A stretch of 14,769 bases of DNA from Methanothrix sp. (GTDB lineage: Archaea > Halobacteriota > Methanosarcinia > Methanotrichales > Methanotrichaceae): the NCBI GenBank assembly GCA_037128175.1, contig JBAXWY010000058.1, positions 1 through 14,769 on the forward strand, read 5' to 3'. The notes under the pieces were generated by a model that made no database searches, was not told where the DNA came from, and saw only the letters and a program-made list of their open reading frames with translations. Position 1 is the first letter of the stretch; each line of letters starts with the position of its first letter. Positions 50 through 12,791 of this stretch are shown here, piece by piece. The position numbers were made by a program, and so were the translations under genes.

Positions 50-826
50 CTAGATGGTTCAGTTCCTGAAATTCATGATGCCTGCCGAGGGGTGGGAAGC
101 TTCAAGAAAGCCATGGAAGGGATAGCCTGCCTAAAGAGTTATCAAATTCCGTTGACTGTAAGGGTGACCATCAATCGGTACAATGTGAACGATTTGGAAA
201 ATATCGCAGAACTATTGCTAGAAGAAATAGGACTGCCAAGTTTCTCCACAAATAGTGCAACACATTTTGGGCTATGCAAAAACAATGCAGAGCAAGTCCA
301 ACTTACTCCAGATGAACACTATCTAGCGATGAATACTCTTCAGATATTGAATATTAGATATTCAGATCGAATTCAAGCCCAGGCAGGGCCCCTTGCCAAT
401 TTGAAAGCATGGAACAAAATGAAAAAATCCCTCGCACAGGGCTTAGAAGAGCCATCAAATCTAGGTTTTGGTCATTTGACCTCTTGTGGAGGTCCAATGA
501 CGAATATAGCAATACGGGCGGATGGGGTTATTGTACCATGTAGCTTGCTTAGCCACATTGAGCTGGGTAGAATAAACGAAGATAACCTAACGGAAATATG
601 GTCCCATCATCCCCAGCTAATTAGACTTAGGGAGAGACACAAGATTTCGCTCAAAGATTTCAAATTCTGCAGAGGATGTGATTACATTGAGTATTGCAGG
701 GGAGGTTGTCCTGCCGTCGCCTACAACATTTTAGGCAACGAATATCATCCCAGCCCAGATTCATGTCTAAAGAGATTCCTTGAGGCTAGCGGCACATTGC
801 TCACGAAAAGGTGCGAGACACCATGA
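50..826 (+). CDS. scmE: 5'-truncated radical SAM/SPASM protein, SynChlorMet cassette ScmE-like (C-terminal two thirds only; probably disrupted)
   Basis: The frame is open upstream of the GTG at 92 and reads LDGSVPEIHDACRGVGSF from nt 50, the radical SAM 'S(I/L)DG...HD..RG.GSF' motif. A SPASM cysteine array is present (SCGG...RADGVIVPC...CRGCDYIEYCRGGC...HPSPDSCLKRFL). There is no CxxxCxxC, and an in-frame TAG lies at 26-28. Confidence 0.8.
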   Translation, partial: LDGSVPEIHDACRGVGSFKKAMEGIACLKSYQIPLTVRVTINRYNVNDLENIAELLLEEIGLPSFSTNSATHFGLCKNNAEQVQLTPDEHYLAMNTLQILNIRYSDRIQAQAGPLANLKAWNKMKKSLAQGLEEPSNLGFGHLTSCGGPMTNIAIRADGVIVPCSLLSHIELGRINEDNLTEIWSHHPQLIRLRERHKISLKDFKFCRGCDYIEYCRGGCPAVAYNILGNEYHPSPDSCLKRFLEASGTLLTKRCETP

Positions 827-1929
827 ATAAAGCCATCCATGACAACAAGAGTTTCCCACTCAACGTGCTATATTTCTATCTAACAAAAGGGTGCAATTTG
901 GCTTGTCGTCATTGCTGGGTTGCACCTAAGTATCAAAAAGATGATCAGATTTATCCTAGCCTTCCCCTAGATCTATTCAGATCTATAATATATCAGGCAA
1001 AACCCTTGGGCCTCAATAGCATAAAACTCACGGGAGGAGAACCGTTACTCCATCCTAAAATTGTAGATATTCTTGAGTTGACCAGGATAGAGAAGCTTAG
1101 GCTAGTTGTGGAAACAAATGGCGTCCTTTGTTCTCCGATCTTGGCGAGAAAGATCGCTGAGTGCAAAGACCCTTCTGTTTCAGTTAGCATCGACGGTACT
1201 GATGCCGAGACGCACGAATGGCTCCGGGGCGTTCCAGGATGCTACGAAGCTGCTTTAAATGGCGTACGTAACCTTGTTGATGCAGGACTTAAACCCCAGC
1301 TTATCATGACTTTGAACAAGAGAAACAAGAATCAAAAAGAAGATTTCTTAGAACTAGCTGAATCCTTAGGTTGCGGTTCAATAAAATTTAATATGGTACA
1401 GAATGTGGGACGCGGAGAGATAATGCATCGAGATGGAGAAACCTTAACTATTGAGGAACTTGTCGCCACCAATGAATATTTAGAAAATAGCCTTTCCAAG
1501 TCGACAAAGCTTACGGTGTTTGCCAGTCATCCACTTGCATTTCGCCCTCTAAGTAGGATGTTTGGTTCTCTCGGGAATGGATGTCAGACCTGTGGTGTTC
1601 TTGGAATTCTAGGCGTTCTTGCAGATGGTTCCTATGCACTCTGTGGTATTGGCGAAACCATTCCGGAACTTATTTTCGGTAATGCAGCCCGAGATAAATT
1701 AGCGGATATTTGGGAAAAATCAATTTTACTTCAGGAAATCCGCAAAGGAGTACATGAGCACTTAAAGGGAATTTGCAGCGAGTGTATTGTAAAGAACATG
1801 TGTCTCGGGCATTGTATAGCAAATAACTACCACAATAGTAAAGACCTATGGGCACCACACTGGTATTGCGAAGAAGCTTATAAAGCAGGGCTGTTTCCAG
1901 AGAGCAGACTAACTAAGGGAATATCTTAA
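823..1929 (+). CDS. scmF: Radical SAM/SPASM protein, SynChlorMet cassette ScmF-like
   Basis: Motifs: YFYLTKGCNLACRHCW (CxxxCxxC), KLTGGEPLLHP, ETNG, VSIDG, and SPASM cysteines (CQTC...YALCGIG...CSECIVKNMCLGHC...WYCE). I prefer the ATG at 823 (ATGA overlap with the upstream stop at 824-826) over the GTG at 811. Confidence 0.88.
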   Translation: MNKAIHDNKSFPLNVLYFYLTKGCNLACRHCWVAPKYQKDDQIYPSLPLDLFRSIIYQAKPLGLNSIKLTGGEPLLHPKIVDILELTRIEKLRLVVETNGVLCSPILARKIAECKDPSVSVSIDGTDAETHEWLRGVPGCYEAALNGVRNLVDAGLKPQLIMTLNKRNKNQKEDFLELAESLGCGSIKFNMVQNVGRGEIMHRDGETLTIEELVATNEYLENSLSKSTKLTVFASHPLAFRPLSRMFGSLGNGCQTCGVLGILGVLADGSYALCGIGETIPELIFGNAARDKLADIWEKSILLQEIRKGVHEHLKGICSECIVKNMCLGHCIANNYHNSKDLWAPHWYCEEAYKAGLFPESRLTKGIS

Positions 1930-9372: not shown

Positions 9373-10785
9373 ATGTTTAGCAAACAAATAATGATTAAAA
9401 ATACTATTCTCACAGGACTCGCGCTTGCCTTTACAGGACTGACTCGAGTAATTTACAGCATTGCGGTTGCAAAAAGCTTTAATGCAGATATCCTGGGTCA
9501 AATGAATTTAATCATTTCCATTACCATGCTGCTTTCTTTGGCCATCTCAATAATAACGGAAAGCTCCGCTACAAAATTCTTGAGCGAATTTCCCTCAGAT
9601 AGTGATAGGAAAAACACTTTTGCTTTGCTTTTGCGGTGGCTGCTGATTGGATCATTGATTCTAATAGTTGCGACTTATTCTTTGCAGAATTACATGCTGC
9701 AATATATCAAAATAGACAAAAGCATATTTATGATCAGTCTTCCGCTTATATTATTAATATCAGCTCACCATTTTTGTAGGGGCTGCTTTTACGGCCTCAA
9801 TGCTATCGATAAATATCTTAAGTTAGAACTTGTTTCTGCTGCGCTTTTTTTTCTGGTCCTTGGGGCAGACATATTCGTATGGAGACAGAATTTGCTGTGG
9901 CCATTTCTGGCATACTATCTTCTATTCACCTTATTGGGCGTAGTTAGCTTAAAAGAATACTTTCGGCCTTCAAAGAAGTCATTTGCTTTAAGTAGATATA
10001 TTGGGATCTATGGCATCATCGCTGCGATTGGAACATTAGCCAGCACATCCAAGGCATATATAGCCAATATATCAATTGGAATTTATCTATCTCCTGAACA
10101 GGTTGGGTTTTATTCGGCTGCCATATCAATAACAACGATTCTTATGTACGCGCCAACAATCCTTGGACGTGTCCTTCTTCCTACCATATCTTCTTCGTAT
10201 GGAGCTGGCGATGTTCATACAATCAAGAAATTACTGGATATTACAACAGTATGGCTCTCCATGGCAGTATTCTTCTTGGGTGGCATATTAATCATTTTAT
10301 CTAAAGAAATACTTATCTTACTATTTACACCCGCGTTCAAAGAAGCAGCTTTTTCACTCCAAACGCTAATATTGGATTTATGTCTTGCTACCATGGTTTT
10401 GCCCGCCGTCAGCGCTTTAGTTGGAACAAAGTACGTTAGAATCCCAGCATTCGCCGCCATTTTTGGTACTTTAGTGAGCATAGCTGTTTGGCCCTACCTC
10501 ATACCAACGTTTGGGATCGACGGTGCTGCAGCAGGTTACATCATAGGAACTATCGTGTGCACAATAGTTCCTCTGTTTTACGCTAAAAAGTACTTCGACA
10601 TGGATCTGAGAAAGCTTAGTTTCATGATTTTGCTTTCGCTTTTCCTATTTGGCTTTGCTACGGCGATAGGTCATTACGCAAAATACTCCTGCTGGATAAC
10701 TGCGTTCATATTTGCAGCGTTATTCTTAATAACTTTAAGAAAGGACCTTAGCGTGATATTTTATGAGCTTAAAAAGAATTTATAA
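9373..10785 (+). CDS. wzx: Polysaccharide/oligosaccharide flippase (Wzx/RfbX, MOP superfamily)
   Basis: 470 aa with about 14 hydrophobic segments. Motifs: IKNT, LSPEQVGFYSAA, VLLPTISSSY, LIPTFGIDGAAAG. Confidence 0.85.
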   Translation: MFSKQIMIKNTILTGLALAFTGLTRVIYSIAVAKSFNADILGQMNLIISITMLLSLAISIITESSATKFLSEFPSDSDRKNTFALLLRWLLIGSLILIVATYSLQNYMLQYIKIDKSIFMISLPLILLISAHHFCRGCFYGLNAIDKYLKLELVSAALFFLVLGADIFVWRQNLLWPFLAYYLLFTLLGVVSLKEYFRPSKKSFALSRYIGIYGIIAAIGTLASTSKAYIANISIGIYLSPEQVGFYSAAISITTILMYAPTILGRVLLPTISSSYGAGDVHTIKKLLDITTVWLSMAVFFLGGILIILSKEILILLFTPAFKEAAFSLQTLILDLCLATMVLPAVSALVGTKYVRIPAFAAIFGTLVSIAVWPYLIPTFGIDGAAAGYIIGTIVCTIVPLFYAKKYFDMDLRKLSFMILLSLFLFGFATAIGHYAKYSCWITAFIFAALFLITLRKDLSVIFYELKKNL

Positions 10786-10871: not shown

Positions 10872-12137
10872 CTAGCGTCGCCTGACAGGATACGGCTTTC
10901 TGGGTGCTGATTTGTGCGCGCTCTCCTGTCTGGACCCTCTGGCCGTGGCCCTCCCTCGATAGGAATTGGCAGACTCGGCTGCGGCCCCCACGGCCATCTT
11001 TGCCGTTTCGGAATGGTACTGGTGCTCCATGACTGCTACTTTCGTCCGTATCAGCCGTTCAATGCTGCGCAGGAAATTGCGTTCATCTGCAGCGCAAAAC
11101 GAATATGCTTTGCCATCCGCCCCGGCACGCCCCGTGCGACCGATGCGATGGATATAGCTCTCCGGCTCGTTGGGCAGATCGAAGTTAATCACATGGGATA
11201 TTTCATCAACGTCAATTCCCCTCGCGGCAATATCCGTTGCCACAAGTACCCGCAAGCGGCCGGATTTGAAATCATGCATGGCCTTGGTGCGCTGGTTTTG
11301 CGACTTGTTGCCGTGAATGGCATCTGCGTTGATCCTGCTCTTGTTGAGCGCCTCAGCGATCTTATCCGCCCGGTGCTTGGTTCGGGAGAAGATCAGGACG
11401 CGTTCCATATCTTCATCTACGATAAGCCTCTGCAATAGCGGAAACTTATTGTTTTGATCCACAAAGAAAACGCTCTGCTTGATGCACTCGAGAGTGCTGG
11501 CCTGGGGAGTGACCTCGATGCGTACGGGATCGGTGAGAAGCTTTTCTGCAAACTCGCCTGTCTCCCGGGACACTGTGGCCGAGAAGAAAAGCGATTGATG
11601 CTTTGGCGGCAGAGCTGCGACTATCCTTTTCATATCCTTGATGAAACCCATGTCAAGCATGCGGTCTATCTCATCCAGGACGAAGAACTCTACGCCCCTC
11701 AGCATAATGTAGCCCTGATTCATCAGGTCGAGCAGCCGGCCGGGTGTGGCAACCAGGACATCGACGCCTTGAGAAAGCATCTTGACCTGTGGCCCTTGAC
11801 GAACCCCACCGAATACGACTGTATGCCGGAAACGCATAAACTGGCCGTATGTGGCAAAGCTCTGGTCTATCTGTGCGGCCAGTTCTCTGGTAGGTGCGAT
11901 AATCAGAGCGCGCGGAACTCCGGGGGGGGAGGGCCTGTGCTGTTCTGATATCTTTTGCAATATGGGCAGCACGAATGCTGCGGTCTTGCCTGTGCCTGTC
12001 TGAGCGATGCCCATCAGGTCTTTTCCATTCAAAAGATGGGGTATAGCCAGCGTCTGTATGGGAGTCGGTGCAGTGTATCCTTCCTTGGCCAATGCTCGGC
12101 AAAGCGGATCTATGATATTTAAATTTCCAAATGACAT
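10872..12137 (-). CDS. rhlE: ATP-dependent DEAD-box RNA helicase (RhlE-like)
   Basis: Q motif (GYTAPTPIQ), AQTGTGKT, PTRELA, GG, TPGRL, DEID, SAT, TDIAARGID, YIHRIGRTGRAG, and a basic C-terminal tail. Confidence 0.95.
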   Translation of the reverse strand: MSFGNLNIIDPLCRALAKEGYTAPTPIQTLAIPHLLNGKDLMGIAQTGTGKTAAFVLPILQKISEQHRPSPPGVPRALIIAPTRELAAQIDQSFATYGQFMRFRHTVVFGGVRQGPQVKMLSQGVDVLVATPGRLLDLMNQGYIMLRGVEFFVLDEIDRMLDMGFIKDMKRIVAALPPKHQSLFFSATVSRETGEFAEKLLTDPVRIEVTPQASTLECIKQSVFFVDQNNKFPLLQRLIVDEDMERVLIFSRTKHRADKIAEALNKSRINADAIHGNKSQNQRTKAMHDFKSGRLRVLVATDIAARGIDVDEISHVINFDLPNEPESYIHRIGRTGRAGADGKAYSFCAADERNFLRSIERLIRTKVAVMEHQYHSETAKMAVGAAAESANSYRGRATARGSRQESAHKSAPRKPYPVRRR

Positions 12138-12287
12138 TCTTGCCTCTAGATAATTCTAAGTTTCGACCTTCGATTTGGTTGAAGTCCTTTGATGTGGATC
12201 CGAAAAGAAACTGGTTGAGTCGTATCTGTTGTCTCTTAATACGGAGAGATACTTCAACCGGCTGCAGAGGCACTTGGGGAAGAATGC
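12134..12287 (-). promoter_or_regulatory. Structured 5' leader of the helicase gene, able to sequester RBS and start codon
   Basis: Complementary segments: 12135-12140 with 12281-12286, and 12141-12147 with 12266-12272. Internal hairpins lie at 12211-12261 and 12165-12186. Confidence 0.55.
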
Positions 12288-12351
12288 TACTTTGTTAAAA
12301 CGAAATGACAATAATATTATAATCAAATCCTTTTAATATCGCCTTGATTGC

Positions 12352-12522
12352 TTAGCAGGCCTTTCGCCTGTGCTTTTGGCAAGCATTCCTGGGAATATGC
12401 AGGCCTGGATCCTTTTTTTCAGGGAAAGGTGTCACGGTACCACGTCCCAAATCGGAACATGCCACGTCTGTCGTCTCTCCTGGACCAATATTCAAGCCGT
12501 CTCTGCCATTTCCAAATCTCAT
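12352..12522 (-). pseudogene. Degenerate CxxC-x17-CxxC small zinc-ribbon protein gene (56-codon ORF, below the ORF-track cutoff)
   Basis: Translates as MRFGNGRDGLNIGPGETTDVACSDLGRGTVTPFPEKK. The -1 frame continues GSRPAYSQECLPK, and the 0 frame resumes KHRRK. Together these resemble the family pattern GPRE...CSDCG..T.VPF.P..GRPVYC.ECLPKHR with two Cys lost. Confidence 0.62.
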
Positions 12523-12686
12523 TTTTTCTATTTATCCTTTATATCGATTCCAAAGAACCGATCGGTGCTCGCAAAAACATCTCAACAGCTTTTTTGAATC
12601 AATGCAAATGAAGCCTATTAACGAGGTGCACTTTAGTCTATATACCTGTCGGTCAAATATCTGCCCGTTAAATCTTCTTGATCTTC

Positions 12687-12717: not shown

Positions 12718-12791
12718 TGCGGGATACGGGATTCGAACCCGCGAACTCCTGCGAGACAGGATCTTAAGTCCTGCGCCTTTAACCACGCTTG
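12718..12791 (-). tRNA. tRNA-Leu(TAA), 5'-truncated (pseudo-tRNA / att-site copy)
   Basis: The - strand reads CAAGCGTGGTTAAAGGCG-CAGGA CTTAAGA TCCTG-TCTCGCAGGAGTTC-GCGGG TTCGAAT CCCGT-ATCCCGC-A. The anticodon TAA is at 12764-12766, with a long variable arm and intact T arm. The 5' acceptor strand (expected GCGGGAT) is absent and replaced by ATCATCTCTGAG. Confidence 0.88.

Follow-up and report, generated by a model that had tools for sequence, protein, structure and literature searches.

Does the mRNA of a methanogen RNA helicase fold back over its own ribosome-binding site, and could such a fold act as a translational switch? The question is raised by a 14,769-nt stretch of Methanothrix sp. 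DNA (the window), in which an earlier note, made from the letters alone, had marked the region before a DExD-box helicase gene as an undescribed cis-regulatory RNA. The features needed to examine this proposal are as follows (b' and c' can also pair with upstream words, decoys b and c, described below).

10872 to 12137, minus strand: gene for an RhlE-like DExD-box RNA helicase of 421 aa with motif II DEID, recognized as an ORF and by domain models
12134 to 12147, minus strand: Shine-Dalgarno (SD) sequence, spacer, and AUG of the helicase gene, with an alternative local hairpin at 12150-12126 (local MFE, -8.3)
12264 to 12272, minus strand: b', UGCCUCUGC, anti-SD arm or partner of decoy b, with 0 substitutions in 25 leaders and 7/7 pairs with the SD in 29/40
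12280 to 12287, minus strand: c', GCAUUCUU, anti-AUG arm or partner of decoy c, with 0 changes in 25 leaders and 8/8 pairs with either partner in 25/25
12211 to 12261, minus strand: hairpin 1, identified by conservation and two-sided changes, whose 5' arm may alternatively pair with 12185-12177
12165 to 12186, minus strand: hairpin 2 of the earlier note, not conserved (~60% paired)

The helicase finds its best match in RhlE models, while missing the equivalog cutoff of PRK10590 (475 versus 743 bits). Orthologs at an E value of ≤1e-90 are present in 79 of the 105 genomes of the family Methanotrichaceae. Elsewhere in the window, a gene for the radical SAM protein ScmF of the SynChlorMet cassette (811-1929, plus strand) scores over its cutoff and is followed by ORFs of a surface-glycan gene cluster up to 10785.

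We compared 89 upstream regions, comprising 43 leaders of the long type seen in the window, 13 short ones (10 by pattern, G008 and G052 reassigned by eye, and G090 added on reading), 3 with an insertion, 2 minimal ones, and 18 of an unrelated type, the others being outgroup or too short. G000 is the genome of the window, and other G, L, and C numbers denote genomes, loci, and contigs of relatives. Alignment A1 holds 41 of the 43 long-type leaders after removal of two near-duplicates; the 40-leader sets used for helix scanning exclude G061, G012, and G022; and a main clade of 25 leaders, mutually kin, served for rates of change. Motif II reads DEID in 43/43 long-type genes and DEID or DEMD in 11/12 short-type genes, with one unread, versus DEAD in the 18 genes with the unrelated leader type and in seven outgroup genes. 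That unrelated leader (~190 nt; 18 genomes; L085, L089, L093, and other g21/g12 loci) is itself strongly conserved and has a different TATA word. In L074, L076, and L092 (G083, G078, and G082), the leader carries an insert of ~230 nt with inverted ends GTGAC...GTCAC and no Rfam match, which we take to resemble IS200/IS605-derived elements. Two helicase loci, C96 and C165, occur in the assembly of G059, one of the long and one of the short type; the short one, at branch length 0 to G007, may be contamination (6%).

The closing motifs lie exactly where they had been placed: GCAUUCU (12287-12281) and UGCCUCU (12272-12266) are complementary to AGAGGCA (12147-12141) and AGAAUGU (12140-12134), and hairpins 1 and 2 occupy precisely 12261-12211 and 12186-12165. 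The MFE structure of 12125-12295 (z score, -2.42; 4 of 200 shuffles equally good) contains both closing helices, but in it GGUUGAAGU pairs with ACUUCAACC and the two internal hairpins of the earlier note are absent. The duplex over SD and AUG, at -16.7 kcal/mol, was equalled by 1 of 1,000 shuffles of the 150 nt upstream and 6 of 1,000 of the 464 nt upstream; at control ORF starts of the same genome, it was equalled in 5 of 405 cases (150 nt) and 16 of 405 (whole leader). It is uncommon, though not unique.

Pairing across the 41 orthologous leaders reaches 95.4% in the SD helix, without any two-sided change, and 87.7% in the AUG helix, which 25 leaders have in complete form. RNAalifold on A1 returned only a 6-bp SD helix, again without a two-sided change. 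Of 26 main-clade leaders, 25 have the same spacer between SD and AUG, while the 18 leaders of the unrelated type show 9 variants. In G076 and G077, the anti-SD is retained although the SD has changed. An exact scan for the anti-SD motif found 22 genome records, 21 of them Methanothrix, Methanosaeta, or Methanotrichaceae and one a proteobacterium.

Rates of change on the tree of the 25 main-clade leaders reveal how strongly the arms are held. Fourfold-degenerate sites have undergone 3.72 changes per site and are invariant at 4% of positions; the anti-AUG arm (7 nt) and the anti-SD arm (9 nt) show no change at all, and the 8 nt between them show 2.25 per site. Pairing in 41 leaders and invariance of the arms support the proposal that the mRNA of a methanogen DExD-box helicase carries a conserved, cis-acting structure that covers its SD and AUG. 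Of the conservation and covariation that the earlier note asked for, the arms show the first; two-sided covariation is nearly absent.

The internal hairpins fared differently from each other. Two-sided changes occur at 5 pairs of hairpin 1, which over 41 leaders is 94.5% paired in its outer part and 85.2% in its inner part; the most distant clade retains this hairpin in other letters. Its median z score is -2.95, with 33 of 42 under -1.5, values flattered by boundaries picked from the hairpin itself. The alternative pairing of its 5' arm with 12185-12177 is 92.8% paired, with no excess over shuffles. Hairpin 2 is complete in only 1 of the 41 leaders.

How long is the leader? The upstream landmarks are these.

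12566 to 12616, minus strand: 5' box (A block) with a possible hairpin of 5 + 4 bp, which the genome's three intact CxxC-x17-CxxC genes also have
12638 to 12652, minus strand: conserved BRE/TATA-like promoter motif, present in most long and short leaders
12718 to 12788, minus strand: 3' part of a tRNA-Leu(UAA), outside the element (Rfam tRNA, 30.9 bits; no ARAGORN call)

In most leaders of the long and short types, the promoter motif precedes the AUG by 153 to 572 nt; it has undergone 0.47 changes per site versus 4.27 in the spacer behind it. From its position, we place the transcription start site (TSS) provisionally near 12615, which would give a leader of ~480 nt. A scan with a sigma-70 promoter model, which is unsuited to archaea, gave chance-level counts. 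The 5' end of the RNA had been put at GCAUUCU, which is probably not the transcript start, because the conserved promoter motif stands ~330 nt further upstream. In the 4 RNA runs examined, out of 13 listed, contigs from the RNA libraries of two studies extend from the helicase gene to 12506 and 12492, although such contigs fix neither strand, TSS, nor a single transcript and DNA carry-over is uncontrolled. They bridge 12266, so that these data do not bear out the first ground for refutation named in the earlier note, a TSS downstream of that point, which would leave the anti-SD untranscribed. The four runs leave 10700-10780 uncovered and have nearly nothing above 12643, and one contig stops at 12599 in adapter letters; this pattern fits a TSS near 12615, yet we do not count it as evidence, since the contigs show no ends and RNA runs alone were compared. 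Libraries containing the window's stretch come from freshwater, lake, sediment, and soil. An intact tRNA-Leu(UAA) lies on contig C38, and the gene is intact at the same place in 7 of 9 loci compared; the partial copy here beside intact ones in relatives suggests an integration site.

In Methanotrichaceae, the RhlE-like helicase gene thus probably has a leader of ~480 nt, of which the proposed element is the 3' third. The idea of a self-contained 157-nt domain with two internal hairpins is not supported, given the length of the leader, the unconserved hairpin 2, and the conserved partners that the blocking arms have further upstream.

These partners lie mainly in the remains of a protein gene.

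12333 to 12522, minus strand: decayed, frameshifted CxxC-x17-CxxC zinc-finger gene (47% identity to the intact paralog L002; E value, 3e-9)
12512 to 12518, minus strand: decoy a, GAUUUGG, pairs with a' (7/7 pairs in 28/40 leaders)
12501 to 12506, minus strand: decoy b (anti-anti-SD), GCAGAG, pairs with CUCUGC at 12269-12264 (6-bp core complete in 37/40)
12383 to 12390, minus strand: decoy c, AGGAAUGC, pairs with c' (8/8 in 25/25 main-clade leaders; missing or disrupted in the remaining 15)
12172 to 12178, minus strand: a', CCAAAUC, with two alternative partners, decoy a and helicase codons 2-4 (12132-12127)
12378 to 12383, minus strand: CUUGCC, a second possible anti-SD for GGCAAG at 12144-12139 (6/6 in 25/25 main-clade leaders)

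The dead gene begins at an upstream ORF (uORF) ATG at 12522 and has an in-frame stop at 12354-12352 and the ancestral R-Y-stop at 12341-12333. At its place, the protein family TIGR04272 passes the cutoff in G085 and G086, whereas the window's own pieces do not match that model (four Cys, >36 bits); the window therefore holds a remnant, not a member. Copies in relatives carry frameshifts, deletions, and lost Cys. The model of the 5' box (R1) matches four places in G000 at an E value of ≤2e-4, namely, the helicase leader and contigs C18, C20, and C31, and it matches in 22 of 30 other genomes of the family and in 0 of 30 outside it. The box has no Rfam match, and its hairpin is 98.5% paired with covariation not above shuffles; possibly, the ~50-nt box marks a small regulon. 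The promoter is common to two intact CxxC-x17-CxxC paralogs whose flanks match by DNA search. The relationship of the dead gene, together with the 5' box and promoter shared with intact paralogs, suggests that the locus was originally a zinc-finger-plus-helicase unit under the zinc-finger promoter. A long-leader HMM found no match among 32 zinc-finger loci, so the 3' half of the leader is not a copied zinc-finger 3' untranslated region. Intact CxxC-x17-CxxC genes also occur 1 to 3 kb from the helicase gene, often on the opposite strand (G076 C1, G077 C11, G078 C21, G085 C227, and G088 C26). TIGR04272 proteins have been shown to bind zinc, and the accessible text of the source gives no function for them and describes no leader RNA (PMC12704099); the leader owes its middle to a gene of this kind, whose promoter and 5' box it keeps, with the difference that the copy here is decayed.

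Selection within the dead gene follows the decoys. Its first 26 nt, which hold decoys a and b, have undergone 0.19 changes per site, the middle has undergone 2.64, and a second block at 12404-12378 has undergone 0.44, so that constraint tracks the helix ends. It could be argued that the ORF still makes a functional peptide and that the words are kept for coding: its start is invariant in the 25 leaders and the frame is open in several. The many frameshifts, deletions, and lost Cys, conservation that includes third positions and stops at helix ends, and G017 and G064, in which the start is deleted while decoys a and b are kept, make this explanation scarcely credible. In G059, G005, and G009, most of the interior is lost and b' and the SD are kept; in G085, G086, L199, and L210, b is mutated and b' has decayed too. 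Among 44 metagenome loci chosen by their helicase start, 38 have the anti-SD motif and 4 are long-type leaders in which it is altered or lost; of the remaining two, one is short and the other has no upstream DNA. The 18 distinct main-type metagenome leaders, some of them duplicates of genomes already used, all have a, c, c', b', and the SD spacer intact, and 15 have a' intact; the base just beyond helix b differs in 6 of them.

An unguided scan of the main clade found 12 conserved helices of ≥6 bp versus a control mean of 1.8 (maximum, 7; 0 of 100 controls as high), and in all 40 leaders it found 7 versus 0.12, the 100 controls preserving the conservation profile. Helices a, b, and c are nested, with a:a' enclosing b and c, and are incompatible with the closed fold. 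Complementarity and conservation, rather than probing, thus define mutually exclusive conserved folds over the start site. Helix b reaches 8 bp in nine leaders of two other clades, and the complete three-arm network is confined to one clade. In models of nascent RNA that ends 22 nt short of the AUG, decoy b, the partner of the anti-SD, has a probability of >0.5 in 30 of 37 leaders at 15°C, not being favored in G047, G002, G071, G057, G060, G076, and G077; for decoy c, the corresponding numbers are 3 of 25 leaders at 15°C and 9 of the same 25 at 30°C. Two-sided changes are absent from the SD helix and amount to one cell each in a few other helices; the clearest is the single one of the second possible anti-SD (12383-12378), in G057. 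Pairing is not proven by covariation, since two-sided changes are nearly absent, as expected where partners are fixed twice.

Thermodynamic models were then consulted, with the caveat that folding predictions at ~500 nt are unreliable. In the full leader, the SD helix has a modeled probability of 0.001 at 10°C, 0.20 at 37°C, and 0.42 at 45°C, and its occupancy goes up with temperature in 27 of 39 leaders, down in 5, and is flat in 7. As a class, a melting RNA thermometer of the ROSE or FourU type is not supported: the modeled helix gains with heat, the opposite of melting open, and Rfam gave no match. The broader notion of a self-contained melting thermometer on a short transcript, perhaps started from the TATA-like stretch at 12322-12315, draws on the nonrandom, conserved closing helices and on this AT-rich word standing ~25 to 30 nt before GCAUUCU. 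Besides the predicted rise of the SD helix with heat, it has against it the RNA-library contigs that reach 12506 and the leaders of G016 and G042, which lack the stretch between the TATA-like word and GCAUUCU and retain the arms, and it leaves the decoys unexplained; we consider it quite unlikely. When folds were forced, going from 10 to 37°C shifted 5 of 14 leaders towards the closed fold and 8 towards the decoy fold, with 1 unshifted; the two were within 2 kcal/mol in 7 of 14 leaders at 10°C and 9 of 14 at 37°C. Forcing the uORF ATG unpaired raised the SD helix in 16 of 19 leaders, as expected by construction.

With the decoy fold forced, the start site became cheaper to open by ≥1 kcal/mol in just 3 of 19 leaders, because the local SD:AUG hairpin forms instead. 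In G000, the cost is 11.2 kcal/mol free and 11.5 with the decoy fold forced, which is ordinary, as 28 of 80 control genes are as high. A start site that stays closed in the decoy models, together with the paucity of covariation and a U-rich run 3' of hairpin 1, would suit folds acting on mRNA stability, processing, termination, or protein binding rather than on translation, and bacterial helicase leaders, in the portions of the reports at hand, work by stability and termination (PMC7430678; PMC5472812). The window's U run, however, is a deletion junction, the arrangement of the partners, nested and in reverse order, accords with RNA pairing, and the clade with a frozen SD-AUG spacer is the very one that has a perfect anti-AUG arm. 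On balance, such action without gating of translation seems improbable, though it deserves weight.

The origin of the complementarity is illuminated by the short leaders, through one further feature.

12256 to 12317, minus strand: segment inverted in short-leader orthologs (short-leader HMM on the other strand, E value of 3e-4 versus the whole genome; blastn, 63 nt, 75%)

In these leaders (~190 to 230 nt; L016, L018, L072, L083, and others), the ~60-nt segment 12317-12256 is reversed and directly follows the 5' box. On the opposite strand, the short-leader HMM matches 41 of the 43 long leaders; the long-leader HMM, in turn, matches 12 of 12 short ones. Short leaders have a conserved fold of their own, with an 11-bp helix formed with the 5' box (60/60 and 66/72 cells paired) that is crossed by a 15-bp helix; these helices, at 93.6% pairing and with 2 two-sided changes confined to G116, show no excess over shuffles. 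On the helicase tree (46 rows; 17 near-duplicates omitted), long and short forms interleave with 6 and 7 changes, and the short-type G072 is sister to the long-type G014 with support of 97/94. Repeated template switching at imperfect inverted repeats, horizontal exchange, or old paralogy may account for this.

Part of the complementarity may have been inherited from the inversion and from similar gene starts. Could all of it be a functionless relic of these two? The anti-SD segment is the reverse complement of the short-leader segment, zinc-finger and helicase starts are alike, and the tree leaves the polarity of the inversion unsettled. But invariant arms beside near-saturated neutral sites require present selection; inversion can explain how the complementarity arose, not how it has been held invariant, and a relic is very unlikely.

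We therefore return to a conserved cis-acting switch between two states, anti-SD and decoy, in the ~480-nt helicase leader. We put its probability at about 0.62, with models among its supports, and infer that both folds form and alter translation. In the closed fold, the arms 12287-12280 and 12272-12264 would cover AUG and SD; in the decoy fold, the same arms would be held, nested, by look-alike words in the upstream dead gene. Refolding from decoy to closed would lower helicase synthesis. The decoys are transcribed first, so the anti-SD would be trapped before the SD exists. Unwinding of short helices is the usual work of DEAD-box proteins. Conversion of the decoy fold to the closed fold would need short helices unwound, which favors feedback by the helicase, and Escherichia coli deaD (PMC7430678) and Caulobacter rhlE (PMC5472812) serve as precedents.

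Given a switch, our first, tentative choice of trigger is, by analogy, the helicase itself, which might unwind the decoy helices of 6 to 8 bp; this would give negative feedback that slackens when unwinding limits, e.g., in the cold. Folding kinetics set by temperature alone is possible and comes a close second. Ribosomes at the retained start of the dead gene, which would strip decoys a and b, are a somewhat doubtful but still close third, and another RNA-binding protein is unlikely. A more far-reaching version, which we offer as speculation, is that a dead protein gene became an RNA decoy in three parts, which mimic the SD, AUG, and first codons of the gene downstream, and that the helicase or dead-gene ribosomes reset it, and that sister lineages fold differently via the inverted 60-nt segment. 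If true, the switch would report the unwinding or translation capacity of the cell in the cold.

The word "undescribed" stands as far as Rfam goes: the window gives only the tRNA and two chance matches, with none for the leader, and 10 related loci give none. A literature search, in which subscription journals were thinly covered, found no description of this leader. The earlier note had cited deaD of Methanococcoides burtonii, a cold-induced DEAD-box helicase gene of a methanogen (cited in PMC3590241, available in part). This comparison is an analogy only, as the helicase here is RhlE-like and below the RhlE cutoff; the A-block model is without match in the 30 genomes outside the family. Escherichia coli deaD is closer in having a very long leader (838 nt) on a DEAD-box helicase gene and a proposed remodeling by its own product; the gene here differs in being RhlE-like, and the E. 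coli leader acts through mRNA stability and Rho termination, with no SD decoy described in the sections available (PMC7430678). Caulobacter rhlE, cold induced, with a structured 186-nt leader and a reporter that is higher in the rhlE mutant, belongs by best match to the same helicase subfamily; it differs in that the part of the report at hand gives no defined alternative fold, and it is likened by description, not sequence (PMC5472812). The Sri hibernation factors proved unrelated, judging from the available part of their report (PMC13454478), and the accessible portion of PMC5378194 does not mention helicases.

With these bacterial genes, the locus appears to share a long leader on a DExD-box helicase gene. 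To our knowledge, Rho is not an archaeal factor, and defined cis-acting RNA switches are scarce in archaea. Methanothrix relatives are major converters of acetate to methane, including in cold sediments, and the element supplies exact, testable pairs for how a methanogen may tune a helicase of a cold-linked family. It also lets one trace a prokaryotic pseudogene kept as putative regulatory RNA, since living relatives show it intact, decaying, deleted, and inverted. In the cspA mRNA thermoswitch, a long leader adopts mutually exclusive folds, one of which is translated better; the leader here differs in having no Rfam match, no consistent equilibrium shift with temperature, and decoys that come from a pseudogene. 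In the leader-peptide attenuators of ermC and cat, a uORF overlaps the anti-anti-SD, with the anti-SD and SD downstream. Here too, the uORF start at 12522 overlaps the anti-anti-SD, and its ATG is invariant in 25 leaders; the uORF, however, is a decayed protein gene, with no conserved stalling peptide (frameshifts, deletions, and a lost start in relatives), and the polarity would be reversed, in that a ribosome on it would close the switch. If the switch is real, at the probability given above, the leader would work like cspA-type and attenuator-type switches while standing outside every described family.
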